Origin: a virus
Lineage: Duplodnaviria; Heunggongvirae; Uroviricota; Caudoviricetes
Length of the DNA: 42,066 nt
Strand: one strand, 5' to 3'
IMG/VR virus record: IMGVR_UViG_2541047679_000006
Coordinates: 1-42,066 of that record
Part shown: piece after piece, positions 1,419-42,066 of the stretch
Position numbering within the stretch: position 1 is the first letter of the stretch
How the letters are laid out: each line of letters opens with the position of its first letter
The notes under the pieces: model-generated
Told to the model about the DNA's origin: nothing
What the model saw: the letters and a program-made list of their open reading frames with translations, nothing else
Databases searched by the model: none
Program-made: the position numbers and the translations under genes

Positions 1419-2489
1419 TTATTTGATTTCAATTTTGTCCCACTCCCTGCCTCTGTCATCACGATACTGTGATGCCATGGTGTCCGACTTATGCCCGAGA
1501 AGATGTTGAGCAAACTTATCGCTTATCTGCTTCTCATAGAGTCTTGCAGACAAACTGCGCAACTCGTGAAAGGTAGGCGGATCCCCTTCGAAGGAAAGAC
1601 CTGATGCTTTTCGTGCGCGCATAAAATACCTTGATACTGTGCCGGATGAAAGCGGTTCGCGACGAGTAGATGCAATTATGGTTTTTCCACCAAGAATCTC
1701 TTTGCATTTATCAAGTGTTTCCTTCATTGATATCCCGAGAGCATCAACATGCAATGCTGTTGGGATGGCAATTTTTACGCCTGTTTTGCTTTGCTCGACA
1801 TAAAGATATCCATCTACGATATCAGACCACTTCATTTCGCATAAATCCCCAACTCGCTGCCCGGTAACAACAGCCAGTTCCATTGCAAGTCTGAGCCAAC
1901 ATGGTGATGATTCTGCTGCTTGATAAATTTTCAGGTATTCGTCAGCCGTAAGTCTTGATCTCCTCACCTCTGATTTTGCTGCGCGAGTGGCAGCGACCGG
2001 GTTTGTTGTTATATGGCCTTCAGCTATTGCCTCTCGGAATGCATCGCTCAGTGTTGATCTGATTAACTTGGCTGATGCCGCCTTGCCCTCGTCTATGTAT
2101 CCATTGAGCATTGCCGCAATTTCTTTTGTGGTGATGTCTTCAAGTGGAACATCAGGTAGACCCCTCCTTATTGCTTTAATTTTGCTCATGTAATTTATGA
2201 GTGTTTTCTGCTTGATTCCTCTACTGGCGAGTATTTTTTCGTAGCGATCAAGCCATGAATGTAACGTAACAGAATTATCACTGTTGATTCTCGCTGTCAG
2301 AGGCTTGTGTTTGAGTCCTGAAAATAACTCAATGTTTGCCTGTATTGCTTCAGTAATTGCTATCCTCCTGTCTCTGCCTAATCCGAACTCTTTACCCGTC
2401 CTTGGGTCCCTGTAGCAGTAATATCCATTGTTTCTTATATAAAGGTTAGGGGGTAAATCCCGGCGCTCATGACTTCGCCTTCTTCCCAT
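1419..2489 (-). CDS. int: Integrase, tyrosine recombinase (lambda Int type)
   Basis: 356-aa translation MGRRRSHERRDLPPNLYIRNNGYYCYRDPRTGKEFGLGRDRRIAITEAIQANIELF… is essentially lambda Int; ATG verified at 2489-2487. Confidence 0.95.
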   Translation of the reverse strand: MGRRRSHERRDLPPNLYIRNNGYYCYRDPRTGKEFGLGRDRRIAITEAIQANIELFSGLKHKPLTARINSDNSVTLHSWLDRYEKILASRGIKQKTLINYMSKIKAIRRGLPDVPLEDITTKEIAAMLNGYIDEGKAASAKLIRSTLSDAFREAIAEGHITTNPVAATRAAKSEVRRSRLTADEYLKIYQAAESSPCWLRLAMELAVVTGQRVGDLCEMKWSDIVDGYLYVEQSKTGVKIAIPTALHVDALGISMKETLDKCKEILGGKTIIASTRREPLSSGTVSRYFMRARKASGLSFEGDPPTFHELRSLSARLYEKQISDKFAQHLLGHKSDTMASQYRDDRGREWDKIEIK

Positions 2490-31689: not shown

Positions 31690-33075
31690 ATGGCTACTTG
31701 GCAACAAGGAATCAACTCAGGCGGTTTTCTTGCTGGTATCGGTGGGCAAAACTCAAATGCGCCAAAGGCAAGTGATGTAAGTGAGGCGTTGGCCTATATT
31801 CGCCAGAACAACGAAATGGAGCGTTCAGGTCGCAATAACATCGGCCTTCAGGCGTTGCAGGGACTTGGTAGTGTCGCTCAAACATATCAAGCCGCAAAGC
31901 AACAGGAAGTGGATGCTGCATTCCAAAAAGAATATGCGGCAGCCATCCAGTCAGGTGATCGACAGCAGGTGCGAGATCTGATGACCAAATATCCTGGTCA
32001 ATTAGAGAAGATTCAGTCTGGTATGAAATGGGCAGACGAAGACCAGCGTGATGAAATTGGCAATCTAGCGGCAGGCGGTCAAATTGCCTCCATGATGGGG
32101 GGTGATGCATTTAGCAAGTGGATTGGAAACAATGCAACCAGATTGTCTAATCAGGGGGTAGACCCACAACAACTCCTCAGCATGTATCAAAAAGACCCAC
32201 AAGCAACATCACAACTTATCGGACAATATGGTCAGTTTGCATTAGGCCACGAAAAGTATTGGGATTTACAGGACAAGATGGTTGGTCGCCAGCAGGAGCA
32301 GCAAAGAATTAACGAAACCATTCGCAATAATGACATGACGAATGCGAGGGCTATTAGGGGGCAAAACCTTTCCTATCAGTCTGCAATGACCGGACACGGA
32401 CTTGCAGCAGAAAGACTGGCACTTGATAAGCAGAAATTCGGTTTTGAAGTGCAACAGGCACAAAAAAAGGCCGAGGAACTTATTAATGCTGCGCCAAAAT
32501 TATCAGTGAACATGGAAAAGGCTATAGAAAAATCAGCAGGTGATGCGGCAGCTAGTCGTAATGCTGCCGATTCAATGACAACGCTCGCTGACACGCTGGA
32601 GAAGGAGAAGCCAACTCCTGGTTTGTTCGGTAACGCTGAAAATATGTTCTCTAAGCTTACGGGGCAAGATAACTACCTCCGAGATATGCGGATTAGATTC
32701 AACCAACTAGCCAATGCGCAGGCAACCAAGCTTCTCCCTCCCGGCCCTGCATCAGATAAGGATATTGAGTTTGCAAGGAAAGGCATTCCAAGCGAAACGG
32801 ATAATCCAATGGTCATGGCTCGATGGTTAAGGGGTATGGCAAAAATGGAAAGTAATAACGCGAAGTTCAACGAGTTTAGGTCAGAGTGGATGAGTGCAAA
32901 CGGCAGCCCAGGACAATCTGATCGCAACCGAAACATCATGGGGATGGATGTTAAGAAGGGTGAATCATTGAACTCTGCGGCAAAACGTTTTCTTTCCTCA
33001 AGTTATGGCGATAGCCAACCTCAACAGCAATTGTCCGATGACGAATTAATTAGCAAATATCTCGGAGGGCAGTAA
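31690..33075 (+). CDS. Ejection protein (P22 gp20-like)
   Basis: 461-aa ORF in the gp20 position. Confidence 0.6.
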   Translation: MATWQQGINSGGFLAGIGGQNSNAPKASDVSEALAYIRQNNEMERSGRNNIGLQALQGLGSVAQTYQAAKQQEVDAAFQKEYAAAIQSGDRQQVRDLMTKYPGQLEKIQSGMKWADEDQRDEIGNLAAGGQIASMMGGDAFSKWIGNNATRLSNQGVDPQQLLSMYQKDPQATSQLIGQYGQFALGHEKYWDLQDKMVGRQQEQQRINETIRNNDMTNARAIRGQNLSYQSAMTGHGLAAERLALDKQKFGFEVQQAQKKAEELINAAPKLSVNMEKAIEKSAGDAAASRNAADSMTTLADTLEKEKPTPGLFGNAENMFSKLTGQDNYLRDMRIRFNQLANAQATKLLPPGPASDKDIEFARKGIPSETDNPMVMARWLRGMAKMESNNAKFNEFRSEWMSANGSPGQSDRNRNIMGMDVKKGESLNSAAKRFLSSSYGDSQPQQQLSDDELISKYLGGQ

Positions 33076-35009: not shown

Positions 35010-35399
35010 CTAACATTTTCTTTTTACTTTTCCAACAAAAGCTTTGGTTGAATCCATATTTCCATAACCGGAAATGGTTTTTGACATTAAAACTGTTCCA
35101 GTAGGATGTATTACCCATGAGTCGATAACGCGTTGAGTTTCGCCATTCGCGCCGATTCCTATGATGGAGTTTTTAGACAATGCTTTGTAAGCCATGCCGC
35201 CCGCATCTGTCCCAGAATATGTGATGCTGGCATCTTCACCGTTTGTCTTAATGATGAATGTTCCACTAAAACCATCTTCTTCCGGATGGAAATTATTTCG
35301 TTCTGAATAGCTTATTCCGCGCATATCTCCAACGACCCAGCACTCTGCTGTAGCCCCAAAAGATATGAATAAGAACATAGCAGTAAGAAATTGCTTCAC
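35010..35399 (-). CDS. Hypothetical secreted/periplasmic protein (129 aa, N-terminal signal peptide), moron candidate in the immI-equivalent region
   Basis: N-terminus MKQFLTAMFLFISFGATA-E is a typical Sec signal; convergent with the ejection genes; AT-rich. Confidence 0.55.
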   Translation of the reverse strand: MKQFLTAMFLFISFGATAECWVVGDMRGISYSERNNFHPEEDGFSGTFIIKTNGEDASITYSGTDAGGMAYKALSKNSIIGIGANGETQRVIDSWVIHPTGTVLMSKTISGYGNMDSTKAFVGKVKRKC

Positions 35400-35562: not shown

Positions 35563-35773
35563 CAACATTGCATGAAACTTGCAGGAAATGTGACATTACC
35601 TTATAGGTAACTTCGGCGAAAATGCAGTAAATGTGAAACGTAATGATTTAAACGTGTCGAGAAAGTGGTTGTAAGTTAGCCTCTGAAGGATTGATGACAG
35701 CTTTGTTATGGTATTAAATGCAACTTGACACAGTTGTATACATAGCTGCGGCTATCAAGATGGAGGTATGTTT

Positions 35774-36217
35774 ATGCTCACTTGTTTTGATGTCGCCGAC
35801 TACTTCTTGGCGCATTGCGATGAAGAAAGTGGCGACATTATCTCTAACCTAAAAATTCAGAAGTTGACGTATTATGCCCAAGGGTTTTCTCTGGTTCTTC
35901 TGGGTAAGCCGCTATTTAATGAGAAAATTGAAGCCTGGATGCATGGGCCAGTAGTTCCTGAATTGTATCGTAAATATAGGGACTGTGGTAACGGAGCTTT
36001 ACCTGCGCCAGAAAACTTTGACGCTAAAAAATTCAGTGAAGATGAAATTGAATTGCTGGATGAGGTGTATAAAGTTTATGGTCAGTTTTCTGCCTGGAAA
36101 CTGCGCAATATGACTCACGAAGAGCAGCCATGGAAAGATGCTTACATTGAGGGTGCGGTTAGCCAAGAAATCACACTTGATTCTATGAAAGGTTTTTTCA
36201 AAACGTTAATTAACTGA
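35774..36217 (+). CDS. GepA/Panacea-like (DUF4065-like) phage-associated protein, candidate antitoxin-type component
   Basis: Translation (…DVADYFLAHCDEESGDIISNLKIQKLTYYAQGFSLVLLGKPLF…WMHGPVVPELY…) fits my recollection of the GepA/Panacea family; GGAGG RBS 6 nt before the ATG at 35774. Confidence 0.65.
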   Translation: MLTCFDVADYFLAHCDEESGDIISNLKIQKLTYYAQGFSLVLLGKPLFNEKIEAWMHGPVVPELYRKYRDCGNGALPAPENFDAKKFSEDEIELLDEVYKVYGQFSAWKLRNMTHEEQPWKDAYIEGAVSQEITLDSMKGFFKTLIN

Positions 36218-36222
36218 CGTGT

Positions 36223-36645
36223 ATGTCTAGAGTTAAGGGAAGAATAAAACAGAGGGATAAAGAGAGCTCTGCTACTGTTGGCCTCTCTATCCATCACGAA
36301 TCTCATGATGTAGAAAAAAGTCCGCCTGTATTTTCTCTTAGATACCTACAAAAGGGGTATTGCCTGGATTGCTGCCAAAAGCATGAAAAGGCAGCATTTG
36401 CAGATAGGCTGTTCAGGTTAAGTCAGATGTCATGGGATGAGATACGAAAATCTGATAAACACGGGCTTGGGACGGAAAAAATTGCCAGAAACGCGATAAA
36501 GGCTCCGATTCCTAAGCATGTTACTCAAGATGTGGATTTCATTGCGTTCAGATTTTGCTCTAAGGCACCTATGGTTGGTTATAAGATAGGAGCCACTTTT
36601 TATGTCTTATGGCTCGACAGGGAGTTCAAGCTATACAAGCACTAA
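36223..36645 (+). CDS. Hypothetical protein (140 aa) tightly linked downstream of the GepA-like gene, candidate partner/toxin
   Basis: ATG 5 nt after the upstream stop with no SD of its own, suggesting translational coupling; basic N-terminus and CxxCC motif; unrecognised. Confidence 0.5.
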   Translation: MSRVKGRIKQRDKESSATVGLSIHHESHDVEKSPPVFSLRYLQKGYCLDCCQKHEKAAFADRLFRLSQMSWDEIRKSDKHGLGTEKIARNAIKAPIPKHVTQDVDFIAFRFCSKAPMVGYKIGATFYVLWLDREFKLYKH

Positions 36646-36672
36646 TAAAACCCACCGTCAGGTGGGTTTTTT
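36645..36672. terminator. Bidirectional intrinsic terminator between the 140-aa gene and mnt (AAACCCACC-GTCA-GGTGGGTTT flanked by A/T runs)
   Basis: 9-bp perfect stem with T-run on the plus strand and A-run on the other side; overlaps the mnt stop. Confidence 0.6.
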
Positions 36673-36918
36673 GTACAAATCCTTCAGCGTATCAAACACC
36701 ATCTTCTTAACAAGATCTGACTGCTCATCAGCGAGTCGTTCTGCATCGTCACGATACCCGCTTACAGGTGATGGTTTGGAGAGTGATTCTTCCATCGTAG
36801 CCACAATTTCGGAATTGATAGACCTGTTATTCATTTTTGCACGCTGCTTAATCTTAGCGTGCAACTCGTGCGTAAGCCTCAAGTGGAACTGCGCCTCATC
36901 GTATTTGCTGTACATCAT
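36658..36918 (-). CDS. mnt: Mnt-like repressor (P22 immI ribbon-helix-helix family), without arc or ant
   Basis: C-terminal 86 aa (…AKMNNRSINSEIVATMEESLSKPSPVSGYRDDAERLADEQSDLVKKMVFDTLKDLYKKPT) closely match P22 Mnt as I recall it; ATG at 36918 with GGTGAGG RBS; the longer track ORF is an upstream read-through. Confidence 0.8.
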   Translation of the reverse strand: MMYSKYDEAQFHLRLTHELHAKIKQRAKMNNRSINSEIVATMEESLSKPSPVSGYRDDAERLADEQSDLVKKMVFDTLKDLYKKPT

Positions 36919-37050
36919 CAATGCCTCACCAAATGGGTGGAATGGCATCGTAAAACCTACTGTACAAATCAACAATCGTACCATTTCGGTATGTAACAAA
37001 TTCCAACCGTAGCCATGCTTCGGTGATTCCTTGTATCTGGAGCAAATTAA

Positions 37051-39756
37051 ATGACAGACATTACAGCCAATGTTGTAGTGAGTATGCCTTCGCAACTCTT
37101 CACTATGGCGCGTTCTTTTAAAGCCGTAGCCAATGGCAAAATTTATATCGGTAAAATTGACACTGACCCGGTAAATCCTGAAAACCAGATTCAGGTTTAT
37201 GTAGAGAACGAAGACGGTTCTCACATTCCTGTTTCGCAACCAATAATCATTAACGCTGCTGGATATCCGGTATATAACGGACAGATTGCCAAATTCGTAA
37301 CCGTGCAAGGCCATTCTATGGCTGTTTACGATGCTTATGGCACTCAGCAGTTTTATTTTCCAAATGTATTAAAATACGATCCAGATCAGTTTGGCCCAGA
37401 CTTCAAAGAGCAGTTATCTCAATCAGGAGCATACATTAATGATGATTCAAAAGGTGATGCATTAATTGGGGTAAGGCAGCCATTTACCGGGGCTGTAACT
37501 ATAACTCAGCATGAAAACAATGCTCTTTTCTTAAATGTAAAACAATTCGGAGCAATTGGGGATGGGAAATATCATCCATTATCTGAGAGGTTTTCTTCAA
37601 TTTCTGAAGCAAAATCCTTATATCCTTTTGTTGACTCATTATCTCAGTCAATAGACTGGGCCGCGTGGCAAGCTGCCCTTAACACAGGAAAGGTTATTTA
37701 TGGTACTGATAATGCGTATGTAATAACGGATACGTTAACACCTGTTTCTGGTGGTGGGATAATTGGTCTTGGTGTGGGCAAATGGGTCTCCGGATATACT
37801 GCAACATTTGCTCCTGATATTACCACAGGGACCACATTCCTGATGTACGGGGTAGGAAATAAAAAATATACTGTAGATTGTGTTTCTAATATGGATGTTA
37901 GTGGTGGTGTGGTTTCTAATCCATCTTCCGAAGACCCGTATACAACAACAGCACCTGCGTCATCATATGATTTATTGGATTTTACTAACGGTGATGCTAA
38001 TGGGACTACAAGAGCCACGCTTAAACCATTCTCTGCCGCAATATTGATGCCTGAGACAGGATGTGTTCGCCTTGAGAACTTTCGTGTTGTTCCATATTTC
38101 AATGGGCTGGATGGTTATAAAGACATTGCAAATACCGGTCTTGGCGATGAGTGGGATGTAGGTATTTGGTCACGTGCGTCTTTTGGCAATGAATACCGCA
38201 ATTTGCAGGTGGTTGGATACTGGCGCAAGACGGCACTTTTAAAAACGAACATTCCTGTATCTGGCACGCTGGCTGCTCAGGGCGAGGATGAAAACTATTA
38301 TCACTGTAGATTCCAGGGATTCAAGGGTGTTTCGATCCGCGCCAATGATGTATTCCGAATTACAGCGGTAACGTCCAGCACTATCGAAATCCCATGGTCA
38401 GCAAGCCACACCTTCGAAACGTCCGGAGTTTTAAGATCTGGAGGCAGGAATTTCACTTATTCAGGATTATCCGTATCCGGTGATAAGTTAGTATTTACTG
38501 GAGTGTCTAACGCTTCTGAGGCAACAGTAGGTTCTACTATACGGCGAAATGACATAGATAACTTTGGTATGGCGGGAACGCAATTTTTCGATTGCTACAT
38601 TACCAGCCTGTATCACCACACACATCTGCTTGCCACATCGCAATACCTGTCTCAACCATTCAGCCGACCATCAGAGTGTATGGAGGTTTCAGGGGAACCA
38701 GTTCGCGGTGTACAGGTACATGCAGGAACCATTCAGGGATGGGATGATGTTCTTATTCATCTGCATGACTGTGGAAATATGAACTTTTACAGTACATATT
38801 TCGAAAGCCAGCAAGCATATGTAACTATAAATGGTGGTAATGCTATTGGTTATGGAGCACGTATGATAGCTTCCCGGCAATCAACAAGCTCATTACCATA
38901 TGCAGCAGGGAATACACGAGTGCTTAGAATGGTCGGGTGCTCTGAAGGCAATGGCGTTGACTGGGGTCCTGTATTTAACAACTATACAGGAGGAAGATAT
39001 AATTCTGGAGACGGTGTATTTAACCCCCGCGATGCATTTATAGACCATAAATCTCTTCCTGAGCAGTCAGGAGGTGAGTCAAGACTCGTATCACAAAAAG
39101 GAAATGCCAGAGTAGTATGTGGTGTTGGTAAAACTGTACTGCTTGGACCAACGTCAGGAGATTGTAATTTACAGAGTAATACCGGAAGTTTAAATATTAG
39201 AAGTGGGATAAGAGTAAGAGTCGGTCACGCTGATGGAACAGACTGGTGGTTGGCAGATGCTAATAAAATAGCTCCTGTTGATGATAATGTTAAAGCTATT
39301 GGACAGCCATCAAACAGATGCTCTGTTATCTATGCAGGAACCGGGTCAATCAATACATCAGATGAAACTCTTAAAACAAGATATGATATTCTTAATGCAG
39401 AGCGTGATGCCGCTATTGAAATAAAGTCAGTCATCTATAAATTTAAATTTAATGACTCAATTAATCACAAAGGAATTGAGTCGTCCAGGTATCATTTTGG
39501 CGTTGGCGCTCAAACCGTAGGGGATATTCTTAGAAAGCATGGTTTAAATCCTGAGCAATATGCTTTTTGGTGTTACGATGAATGGCCTGACGTATGGGAT
39601 GAAGAGGTGATAACTGAAGAGAGCACAGATCCTGATACAGGTGAGAAAATTTATTCTCAATATAAAACAGGAGATATGATTCTTGTAAAAAAAGCAGGAG
39701 GACGCTACGGAATTCGTTATGACGAATTGGCTATGTTTATATTAATGGCAATGTAG
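37051..39756 (+). CDS. Tailspike: P22-type N-terminal head-binding domain, divergent central receptor-binding domain, C-terminal S74-like intramolecular chaperone domain
   Basis: N-terminus [47 protein letters not shown]… matches the P22 gp9 head-binding domain; remainder unlike P22; C-terminus has an S-D-x-x-L-K motif (…[15 protein letters not shown]…). Confidence 0.85.
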
Positions 39757-39774
39757 TTGCAATAAATGCAGTAT

Positions 39775-39805
39775 ATCCCGCATAAAAATGCGGGATTGTT
39801 TTTAT
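39775..39805 (+). terminator. Intrinsic terminator after the tailspike gene (ATCCCGCAT-AAAA-ATGCGGGAT plus T-run)
   Basis: Perfect 9-bp stem followed by TGTTTTTAT. Confidence 0.6.
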
Positions 39806-40058
39806 CTGGTGTATTTATGAATTTTAAGTAAATTTTAGTATTGATTACTGCATCGCAGTTAAAGCCTCATTACCTATGAGGCAAAACTGAGACACACAAG
39901 GCTTTGCACTGGATTGCAAGGCTTTGTGCTATCTGAGATATAGCAATGTTGGTTGCTCCACCTTTTCATCAAGCCAGTCCGCCCACCACTGCATCATTTC
40001 TCTGCGCTTATCGAGATACTGAGCATGGTTGTAAATTCAACTAACCCAGTGAGTTGAC

Positions 40059-40099
40059 AAAAAATTAGCGCAAGAAGAAAAAAAATCACCTTGCGCTAA
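40059..40099 (-). terminator. sib/tI-like retroregulatory hairpin of the att P arm (TTAGCGCAAG…CTTGCGCTAA with U-run on the minus strand)
   Basis: 10-bp perfect inverted repeat (40065-40074 / 40090-40099) followed on the minus strand by TTTTTTG; sequence matches my recollection of the lambda sib region left of attP. Confidence 0.5.
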
Positions 40100-40260
40100 T
40101 GCTCTGTTACAGGTCACTAATACCATCTAAGTAGTTGATTCATAGTGACTGCACATGCTGTGTTTTGCAGTATTATGTAGTCTATTATTTAGACCAAAAC
40201 CATCATAACACATTGATATTGATGATTTTTCTTGTTTCTCATTCAGCTTTTTTATACTAA
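40100..40260. repeat. attR: lambda-type P arm plus the 15-bp common core (40246-40260)
   Basis: Core GCTTTTTTATACTAA identical to the attL core; preceding sequence (…CTGTTACAGGTCACTAATACCATCTAAGTAGTTGATTCATAGTGACTGCA…) resembles the lambda P arm; host B' sequence (CTTGAGCGAAACGGG…) follows. Confidence 0.85.
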
Positions 40261-40350: not shown

Positions 40351-40827
40351 TTAACTAAACATCGCAGTAATCGAGGCACTCGCCAGAGAGTGAAAATGAA
40401 CGTTAAACCCGACCATCGCGCCGCTGGCACCTTCATCGACATCAATACGTTCTACATCCAGCGCGTGAACGGTAAAAATGTAGCGATGGGTTTCGCCTTT
40501 CGGCGGCGCTGCGCCATCGTACCCGGTTTTACCAAAGTCGGTACGCGTCTGCAAAACGCCGTCTGGCATAGCTACCAGACCAGAGCCAAACCCTTGCGGT
40601 AATACGCGGGTATCAGCGGGTAAATTAACAACTACCCAGTGCCACCAGCCGGAGCCGGTTGGCGCATCCGGGTCATAGCAGGTGACAACAAAACTTTTCG
40701 TTCCCACAGGAACATCATCCCACGCCAGATGCGGTGAAATATTATCGCCATCGTAACCCATGCCGTTAAAGACATGACGATGCGGCAGCTTATCGCCATC
40801 GCGCAGATCGTTACTGATGAGTTTCAT
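40351..40827 (-). CDS. ybhB: YbhB, PEBP/kinase-inhibitor-like family protein (host gene flanking attB on the bio side)
   Basis: 158-aa translation recognised as E. coli YbhB; immediately right of attR. Confidence 0.8.
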   Translation of the reverse strand: MKLISNDLRDGDKLPHRHVFNGMGYDGDNISPHLAWDDVPVGTKSFVVTCYDPDAPTGSGWWHWVVVNLPADTRVLPQGFGSGLVAMPDGVLQTRTDFGKTGYDGAAPPKGETHRYIFTVHALDVERIDVDEGASGAMVGFNVHFHSLASASITAMFS

Positions 40828-40935: not shown

Positions 40936-42066
40936 ATGAAACGCGCATATAAATACCGGTTTTACCCGACAACTGAGCAGGCTGAGCTTTTAGCTCAGAC
41001 GTTTGGCTGTGTGCGCTTCGTCTACAATTCCATCCTTCGTTGGCGTACCGATGCGTACTACGAGCGAAAAGAAAAGATCGGTTATCTACAGGCCAACGCT
41101 CGCCTTACGGCGCTCAAAAAAGAGCCTGAATACATATGGCTGAATGATGTTTCCTGCGTTCCCCTCCAGCAGTCGTTGCGCCACCAACAAGCCGCCTTTG
41201 CTAACTTCTTTGCCGGACGAGCTGCATATCCGGCTTTCAAAAGCAAACGGCACAAACAGGTGGCTGAGTTCACTGCCAGCGCGTTTAAACACCGTGACGG
41301 CGAGTTGTATATAGCAAAGAGCAAGTCGCCGCTGGATGTTCGCTGGAGTCGAGAATTACCATCTGCGCCGTCAACCGTTACCATTTCCAGAGATAGCGCT
41401 GGCAGGTACTTTGTTTCCTGCCTGTGTGAGTTTGAACCTGTATCAATGCCTGTTACCGCTAAAACGGTCGGCATTGATGTGGGCTTAAAAGATTTATTCG
41501 TCACCGATACCGGATTCAAAACCGACAATCCCCGCCACACCGCTAAATATGCGAAGCGATTAACGCTGCTACAGCGACGTTTAAGCAGGAAGCAAAAAGG
41601 CTCAAGAAACCGTATTAAAGCCCGCTTAAAGGTCGCCCGACTCCACGCGAAAATCGCCGATTGCCGGATGGACAATCTGCACAAGTTGTCCCGCAAACTG
41701 ATTAACGAAAACCAAGTTGTTTGCGTCGAATCCCTCAAGGTGAAAAACATGATCCGCAACCCGAAGCTGTCTAAAGCAATAGCTGACGCAGGCTGGAGCG
41801 AACTTGTTCGCCAGCTCCAGTACAAAGGCAAATGGGCCGGGCGGTCAGTGGTCGCCATTGACCAGTATTTACCGTCCTCAAAATGCTGTAGTTGCTGCGG
41901 TTTCACCATGCAAAAAATGCCTCTTAATGTTCGTAAATGGCACTGCCCTGAATGCGGCGCAGACCATGATCGCGACATTAACGCGGCACGTAATATTAAA
42001 GCTGCCGGGCTGGCAGTGTTAGCCCACGGAGAGCCTGTAAACCCTGAATCGCAGCACGCGGCTTAG
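40936..42066 (+). CDS. tnpB: IS200/IS605-family TnpB (OrfB) RNA-guided nuclease-type accessory protein, standalone (no tnpA in window)
   Basis: 376-aa translation with OrfB_IS605 features: N-terminal HTH-like region, RuvC-like core, C-terminal zinc finger (CCSCCG…CPECG); stop codon is the last triplet of the window. Confidence 0.85.
   Translation: MKRAYKYRFYPTTEQAELLAQTFGCVRFVYNSILRWRTDAYYERKEKIGYLQANARLTALKKEPEYIWLNDVSCVPLQQSLRHQQAAFANFFAGRAAYPAFKSKRHKQVAEFTASAFKHRDGELYIAKSKSPLDVRWSRELPSAPSTVTISRDSAGRYFVSCLCEFEPVSMPVTAKTVGIDVGLKDLFVTDTGFKTDNPRHTAKYAKRLTLLQRRLSRKQKGSRNRIKARLKVARLHAKIADCRMDNLHKLSRKLINENQVVCVESLKVKNMIRNPKLSKAIADAGWSELVRQLQYKGKWAGRSVVAIDQYLPSSKCCSCCGFTMQKMPLNVRKWHCPECGADHDRDINAARNIKAAGLAVLAHGEPVNPESQHAA

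Follow-up and report, generated by a model that had tools for sequence, protein, structure and literature searches.

The 42,066-nucleotide stretch of DNA analysed here in full, referred to as the window, is the virus record IMGVR_UViG_2541047679_000006 (Caudoviricetes), and the element of interest in it is a gene for a 901-residue tailspike. The protein is read here, with reasonable though not strong confidence, as the tailspike of a P22-like prophage, composed of three exchangeable modules, acting as a probable virion-bound depolymerase of the Escherichia coli K13/K20/K23 capsules and carrying a chaperone that would release itself. The substrate is most likely a group 2 capsule built of ribose and 3-deoxy-D-manno-oct-2-ulosonic acid (Kdo), and not the O antigen, as the association of the tailspike with the capsule loci of its hosts suggests. 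The layout of head-binding domain, beta-helix and S74 chaperone is ordinary for this class of proteins, and domain architecture by itself teaches nothing new. An earlier reading, made from the sequence alone, had described a chimeric tailspike; the three modules lie where it had placed them, but the chimera is not unusual and represents the normal modular design, for which the tailspike of CUS-3 is a precedent. The protein matches PHROG 1171 ("tail spike protein") over its full length and is already deposited under a generic annotation, the 100% identical RefSeq entry WP_021511856.1 ("phage tailspike protein") from the chromosome of E. coli UPEC_U013. The new part is a specific and testable receptor assignment.

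Capsule loci of the lysogens

Association with surface polysaccharides was evaluated in 5,426 complete E. coli genomes, a carrier being a genome with a match to the module core (window 37528-39270). Concatenated queries joining the module core to a marker gene were used; carriers rank first in such searches, and the matched places in each genome show whether the marker is present. The module core was detected in 15 genomes. A sensitive blastn search of the complete genomes, aimed at diverged forms of the module or of krkA, recovered the same 68 genomes as megablast. All 15 carriers possess kpsC, compared with 1,693 of the 5,411 other genomes (a background of 31%; Fisher 3e-8), and 11 of them possess krkA, compared with 54 of the others (a background of 1.2%; Fisher 4e-19). 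The enrichment of krkA persists among kpsC-positive genomes, where it amounts to about 20-fold (11/15 against 54/1,693; Fisher 1e-13).

The identity of krkA links these counts to a defined polysaccharide. In UPEC_U013, the kps locus has a region 2 of two genes, one of which encodes WP_001336789.1. This protein is KrkA, a bifunctional Kdo-/ribosyl-transferase characterised in 2026 as the K13 polymerase of NCTC9022 (PMC12887879). The backbone ->3)-beta-D-Ribf-(1->7)-beta-D-Kdop-(2-> is common to K13, K20 and K23 (PMC12887879; PMC13171606), and the three capsules differ only in O-acetylation (PMC12887879). The 11 krkA-positive carriers have either the K13/K23-type locus, as in UPEC_U013, or a second locus, as in YDC107, which encodes a KrkA of 96% identity and a different, CatB-type acetyltransferase (38% identity). 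The two loci probably correspond to the distinction between K13/K23 and K20. What both groups of krkA carriers share is the capsule backbone and not its acetylation. The association extends over no fewer than three O serogroups, two variants of the K locus and two types of prophage. The surface target, which the sequence-only reading had left as unknown, is thus narrowed by host association to the K13/K20/K23 capsule family, with the substrate itself deduced from that association.

Prophage tailspikes usually match the O antigen of their host, the commoner target of P22-like phages (PMC10408124; PMC3303846), and for the N-terminal ~150 residues of the protein the nearest relative is the O-antigen endorhamnosidase Sf6 gp14. 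The spike might then be specific for an O antigen, and its capsule association a by-product of clonal structure. Such an explanation would have to accommodate near-identical modules (98.7-100%) in hosts that belong to at least three O serogroups (O6 in two carriers, O1 in two and neither in 11) as well as kps loci in every carrier, and it is considered quite unlikely. The O6 wzy gene occurs in 2 of the 15 carriers and in 152 of the 5,411 other genomes (Fisher 0.07); with O1 wzy likewise in only 2 of 15, the hypothesis of an O-antigen target was rejected. YZ1-subtype proteins were independently reported by Pas et al. (2023) from prophages of O102, O6, O1 and O153 strains; these authors left the subtype out of the O-specific types because of its multiple serogroups and raised the idea of a common receptor, a K antigen for example (PMC10408124).

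Besides the usual O-antigen preference, several observations weigh against the capsule assignment. The Fisher tests treat genomes as independent, with shared ancestry uncorrected, and independent lysogenisation events number fewer than 15. None of the complete genomes contains the exact end of this prophage; the window's own host lies outside the set, and its K type forms no part of the association. The kps loci of four of the 15 lysogens (XH992, LS45, 23CRST013 and OZ547246) lack a KrkA homologue; XH992 and LS45 share one region 2 type, 23CRST013 has another, and in OZ547246 both krkA and the XH992 type are absent. When region 2 of XH992 and of 23CRST013 was searched by tblastn for a KrkA that had diverged or been split, no match was obtained. 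A single alternative K locus for all exceptions was considered and rejected, as only XH992 and LS45 have a type in common. Region 2 of XH992 contains glf, ugd, two GT2 genes and an acyltransferase gene, and that of 23CRST013 contains galE, ugd, three GT2 genes and a gene for a small HAD protein.

Capsule replacement after lysogeny is a plausible origin of these exceptions. They would also be explained if the spike recognised something that many group 2 capsules have in common, such as the poly-beta-Kdo linker, or had a K range wider than K13/K20/K23. The difference between kpsC (15/15) and krkA (11/15) and the presence of at least two other region 2 types among the exceptions point in this direction; the beta-Kdo linker is common to group 2 capsules, and beta-Kdo is part of the K13 repeat as well (PMC12887879). 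A broad target of this kind is nevertheless unlikely, although somewhat less so than an O antigen: krkA is strongly enriched even within the kpsC-positive genomes, replacement of the capsule accounts for the exceptions more simply, and a linker buried at the reducing end is an improbable primary receptor.

The predicted central beta-helix and its proposed chemistry

The assignment of the ribose-Kdo backbone as substrate concerns the central domain, whose family was retrieved by an exhaustive HMMER search with residues 121-769 against clusters represented at 50% identity. The family is large, since 1,416 representative clusters were matched at E<=1e-3 and 162 at E<=1e-30. An AlphaFold2 monomer model, built on an alignment of the query with 101 diverse family members, has a mean predicted local distance difference test score (pLDDT) of 83.5, with values mostly above 90 across residues ~160-660. 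The N-terminus was modelled poorly because the family alignment is devoid of head-binding sequences. The predicted fold of the central domain is a right-handed beta-helix (pectin-lyase fold), in agreement with the beta-helix on which the sequence-only reading had depended. Foldseek comparison of this domain with the PDB returned the tailspikes of Sf6, LKA1 (gp49) and phi297 together with GH110 enzymes. The same earlier reading had considered everything behind the head-binding domain unrelated to the P22 endorhamnosidase. This holds for the sequence, in which the alignment with gp9 ends at residue ~121 and the gp9 catalytic domain has no counterpart; the fold class, however, is common to both proteins.

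At the N-terminal side, the beta-helix is capped by the "DFGAxGDG" motif of the pectate-lyase superfamily, and this cap is the sole central part with solved sequence relatives. When the family profile was compared with PDB sequences, it matched only the cap and the C-terminal stalk and chaperone, and no characterised relative of the catalytic body was found there. Within the family, across 102 aligned sequences, E585 is present in all, R430 and H522 in 101, E545 in 100, and D369 and R552 in 99. The carboxylates D369, E545 and E585, accompanied by R430, H522 and R552, would fit a glycoside hydrolase whose substrate is an acidic polymer, as judged from conservation. An enzymatic activity of the beta-helix on a polysaccharide of the host surface is probable.

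A point against the main reading is that the solved matches to the central domain all have 10-15% identity and that the searches yielded no relative characterised by experiment. The domain might instead be an adhesin without catalytic function, or its activity might be that of an esterase (deacetylase) and not of a glycanase. Its presumed catalytic residues map onto no solved homologue, K13, K20 and K23 are distinguished by O-acetylation (PMC12887879), and non-enzymatic beta-helix fibres exist, T5 pb1 being a fibre with no known activity (PMC4690869). An acetyl-specific enzyme would be unexpected, however, in hosts with two different acetyltransferases. The near-invariance of E585, E545 and D369 in a family that diverges to ~30% identity suggests catalysis, and the best structural matches are glycanases or lyases. 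Both variants are for these reasons judged improbable.

A glycanase is thus the preferred interpretation, and its chemistry can be narrowed further. From the ribose-Kdo backbone, the enzyme would therefore probably be an endo-glycanase acting on a beta-Kdo or a beta-ribofuranosyl linkage, the choice of the cleaved bond being speculative. By our own reasoning, a hydrolase is more plausible than a lyase, because 7-linked Kdo does not offer a uronate-type geometry for beta-elimination. To our knowledge, no phage enzyme gene has been assigned to the K13/K20/K23 ribose-Kdo capsule. A search of the available literature library for a report of a phage glycanase cleaving beta-Kdo linkages found none. 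It is possible, and put forward here as a tentative proposal only, that the central domain is the first endo-glycanase for K13/K20/K23 identified by sequence, representing a large uncharacterised family of beta-helix hydrolases with a conserved D369/E545/E585 centre.

A different activity is implied by a database label, "putative endo-N-acetylneuraminidase", attached to a 991-residue form of the protein. The catalytic beta-propeller of endosialidases was not recognised in the window protein, where only the last 35 positions of the Pfam family End_tail_spike match (residues 735-769; 22.8 bits, under the cut-off of 25). The endosialidase reading was rejected, since the similarity is confined to the end of the stalk and the chaperone and the centre is a beta-helix. 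The label most likely derives from this shared stalk and chaperone segment alone.

If the assignment is true, the K13-specific depolymerase gene could serve as a typing reagent and as a candidate anti-virulence enzyme. It would also provide a ready-made receptor-binding cassette for phage engineering, one that has already moved naturally between P22-, phiV10- and T7-like virions, and would enlarge, by one well-supported case, the small group of temperate E. coli phages in which the tailspike recognises the capsule and not the O antigen. K13_K23 is among the K types most strongly tied to invasive E. coli disease (PMC13171606).

Module exchange and predicted self-release of the chaperone

The attachment of the spike to the virion is assigned by homology to solved structures. 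Residues 1-113 match the Pfam family Head_binding (PF09008) over all 113 profile positions (E=1.3e-66; 222 bits against a cut-off of 24), and genes of a P22-like virion lie upstream. Among sequences in the PDB, the best N-terminal match is Sf6 gp14 (7sg7; E=8e-87 over residues 1-184), and P22 gp9 matches at E~1e-51 over residues 1-121, with 1lkt and 2vky among the matches. The ungapped identity is 92% with Sf6 gp14 (residues 1-113) and 73% with P22 gp9 (residues 2-117). The close resemblance of the first ~110 residues to the gp9 head-binding domain, already noticed from the sequence, is confirmed, with Sf6 as the nearer relative.

The N-terminal module is common to Sf6 and other P22-like tailspikes up to residue ~120-133. 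Sliding identity with Sf6 gp14 is 87-97% up to residue ~120, decreases to 60% over residues 121-150 (62% over 114-150) and falls to background afterwards. As the similarity to Sf6 fades, that to the 991-residue protein of YDC107 increases, reaching up to 100% from residue ~133-150. The recombination junction is located near nucleotide 37449 (residue ~133), within a conserved segment of 12 residues, and the DNA alignment switches at AAAAGGTGATGCATTAATTGG.

The domain swapping proposed in the sequence-only reading is directly visible in other genomes, where residues ~133-901 recur on other anchors. In E. coli prophages, the cassette is found at 97-99% identity behind a phiV10-type anchor. The first ~110 residues of the YDC107 protein are unrelated to the window protein, and the identity is 97-100% from residue ~133-150 up to the C-terminus. 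The 991-residue "tail fiber domain-containing protein" of phiV10-like, Uetakevirus-type E. coli prophages is 96.7% identical over residues 111-901, and its first 205 residues have 78% identity with the anchor of the phiV10 tail fibre. The receptor-binding protein of the T7-like Kayfunavirus YZ1 has 72.5% identity over residues 131-901 behind a T7-type N-terminus, and a Vectrevirus tailspike matches residues 161-849 at 42%. A reciprocal arrangement occurs in strain 04-00955, whose P22-like tailspike is 97-100% identical over residues 1-90 and over the last ~100-150 residues, with background similarity in the centre. The cassette of receptor-binding domain and chaperone circulates among at least three virion types, because it is present on P22-, phiV10- and T7-type anchors. 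Such exchange is standard modular evolution of tailspikes, which has been published for CUS-3, K1F and P22 (PMC5380687) and for O-antigen tailspikes of E. coli (PMC10408124).

Four E. coli genomes (DLL7555, SBF22, 702/18 and OZ547246) contain the cassette twice, in a P22-like and in a phiV10-like prophage; an IS3 element interrupts the P22-like copy of 702/18. Double carriage on two unrelated prophages would be expected if both phages needed the same receptor for the same host.

The C-terminal part corresponds to an intramolecular chaperone of the S74 peptidase type. The S-D-x-x-L-K motif, which the sequence-only reading had placed at about nucleotide 39358, is present as SDETLK and starts with Ser770 exactly at this position. 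The Pfam match to Peptidase_S74 (PF13884; residues 770-832) is marginal, with 23.0 bits against a cut-off of 22, a point that would speak against the assignment if taken by itself. This score understates the evidence for a chaperone, which is strongly supported by solved domains: residues 691-901 match those of Kp7 gp51 (7y5s; E=1e-22), K1F endoNF (3gw6; E=2e-14), T5 pb1 (4uw8; E=7e-12) and phi29 gp12 (3gud; E=3e-9), and the family profile raises the match with 3gw6 to 1e-34. The pLDDT of residues 780-901 in the AlphaFold2 model is about 90, and Foldseek retrieved 3gw6, 4uw8 and 3gud with E-values of 5e-10 to 5e-6 and a template modelling score of 0.73 on 3gud. With the Pfam, structural sequence and fold matches together, the chaperone identity suggested earlier is well supported. 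The preceding stalk aligns with the pre-cleavage stalks of K1F endoNF, T5 pb1 and Kp7 gp51. Its lower pLDDT in the monomer model (54-77) is expected, because this region is intertwined in the trimer.

For T5 pb1, an autoproteolytic mechanism has been proposed in which the scissile bond is Thr1263-Ser1264 and Lys1269 activates the serine; Arg1250 of the neighbouring chain, situated between Asp1239 and Thr1263, acts as a sensor of correct trimer folding (PMC4690869). D745, R756, T769, S770 and K775 of the window protein align with D1239, R1250, T1263, S1264 and K1269 of pb1 at identical spacing, and also with K1F endoNF. Counted from the serine, these residues stand at +5 (Lys), -1 (Thr), -14 (Arg) and -25 (Asp), the complete S74 arrangement. 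Cleavage is predicted to occur between Thr769 and Ser770, and Lys775 is the putative general base. Cleavage would divide the 98.3-kDa precursor into a mature chain with a calculated mass of 83.0 kDa and a 15.3-kDa fragment. A domain with only the fold of a chaperone, without autoproteolysis and retained in the mature spike, would be in line with the Pfam score so close to the cut-off; given the five mechanism residues at the exact spacing of pb1 and endoNF and the conservation of the domain at 97-100% between tailspikes with different centres, such retention is very improbable.

Assembly and action of the self-cleaving spike may be envisaged as follows. Three chains would associate, and the C-terminal chaperone would nucleate folding of the stalk and the beta-helix, by homology to K1F and T5. 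Arg756 of the neighbouring chain would then complete the site in which Ser770 and Lys775 are predicted to cut the Thr769-Ser770 bond and free the 15-kDa chaperone. A mature spike of 83-kDa chains would remain after this release, and the N-terminal domains would dock six trimers onto the P22-type tail, as in the solved tails of Sf6 and P22. At the cell surface, the beta-helix, a predicted fold, might bind and cut the capsule, for which the host association argues, and the virion could in this way reach the outer membrane; the hydrolytic chemistry of this step is speculative.

Related systems and prophage context

The closest known system is the tailspike of CUS-3, a P22-like prophage of extraintestinal E. 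coli with a group 2 capsule (K1) as its target. According to its published description, it likewise combines a P22-type N-terminal domain, a capsule-degrading centre and an endosialidase-type chaperone (PMC5380687). The centre of the CUS-3 protein is, however, an endosialidase for polysialic acid, whereas the window protein has a beta-helix and gives no match to the endosialidase catalytic domain. Sf6 gp14 and P22 gp9 share with the window protein the head-binding domain (92% and 73%), in Sf6 also the neck (62%), and a right-handed beta-helix centre. In contrast, their centres are O-antigen endorhamnosidases with no sequence similarity to the window protein past the beta-helix cap, neither matches residues 691-901, and the Sf6 alignment ends within the first ~190 residues. 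The phiV10-like 991-residue protein and the YZ1 protein have the same cassette but their own anchors, a phiV10-type one of 205 residues and a T7-type one, respectively. The solved chaperones of endoNF, pb1, gp12 and gp51 agree with the C-terminal domain in fold, Ser-Lys dyad, Arg and Asp; they differ in having 20-35% identity to it, and self-cleavage of the window protein is a prediction. Coliphage phiK20 is reported to have a virion-associated K20 capsule depolymerase (Nimmich et al. 1991, as cited in PMC7344395). It resembles the proposed enzyme in acting on K20, a member of the capsule family considered here; it is known biochemically, and no sequence for comparison was found. The features of the tailspike and of the surrounding prophage are compiled in Table 1.

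Table 1. Positions in the window of the tailspike gene, its domains and other prophage features
Feature	Position	Strand	Remarks
Tailspike gene	37051..39756	+	ATG start, stop codon included; 901 amino acids (aa); uninterrupted open reading frame (ORF)
Shine-Dalgarno-like GGAG	37039..37042	+	9 nt 5' of ATG; read from sequence
Head-binding (virion-attachment) domain	37051..37389	+	aa 1-113; Pfam Head_binding PF09008 and PDB matches
Neck/linker	37390..37527	+	aa 114-159; holds the recombination junction; sliding identity, DNA alignment
Central receptor-binding, probable catalytic domain	37528..39030	+	aa ~160-660; right-handed parallel beta-helix (predicted); N-terminal "QFGAIGDG" cap
C-terminal stalk of mature protein	39031..39357	+	aa 661-769; ends at Thr769; includes D745 and R756; alignment
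Intramolecular chaperone/peptidase S74	39358..39753	+	aa 770-901; 15.3 kDa; Pfam, PDB alignments, Foldseek
Intrinsic-terminator-like hairpin, then T-run	39775..39796	+	19 nt past stop; terminator scan: 9-bp stem, 5 GC pairs, tail TGTTTTTATC
Lambda att core GCTTTTTTATACTAA, exact copies	attL 1331-1345; attR 40246..40260	+ (attR)	two copies against 0.01 expected by chance
Lambda-type integrase	1419-2486	-	lambda Arm-binding domain
Inj_translocase (gp20-like ejection protein)	31690-33072		upstream of tailspike
SocA/Panacea antitoxin-domain protein	35768-36214	+	Pfam E=2e-24
140-aa ORF	36223-36642	+	no Pfam match; 9 nt after Panacea gene
Mnt	36658-36915		upstream of tailspike
Host ybhB	40351-40824		beyond attR

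The prophage comprises ~38.9 kb bounded by the att direct repeats, with ybhB/bioA on the right and the tailspike as its last gene. It joins a P22-like virion module to a lambda-type integration module at the gal-bio attB. The UPEC_U013 prophage, which encodes the 100% identical tailspike, is annotated with gp10, a tail needle knob and ejection proteins. In P22 and Sf6, serotype-conversion genes follow the tailspike gene. Nothing of the gtr or oac serotype-conversion type lies 3' of the tailspike in the window (39757-40245), where attR is preceded only by the terminator and by ~450 bp of DNA that is either non-coding or a remnant.

Upstream of the tailspike, the Panacea gene and the 140-aa ORF form a candidate toxin-antitoxin pair or defence cargo. 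The pair occupies the place of arc-ant in P22, and at the same position UPEC_U013 has Arc and an antirepressor with a P22AR domain instead. A further ORF of 128 codons on the opposite strand (35010-35396, -), located between the Panacea gene and the gp16-like ejection gene, encodes a protein that has no match in Pfam and begins with a hydrophobic, signal-like stretch; it may be a moron expressed during lysogeny. On the host side of attR and adjoining ybhB, a TnpB/InsQ (IS200/IS605 family) gene for an RNA-guided endonuclease (40936-42066, +) runs beyond the end of the window, and this arrangement near ybhB is also found in UPEC_U013 and in strain 04-00955.

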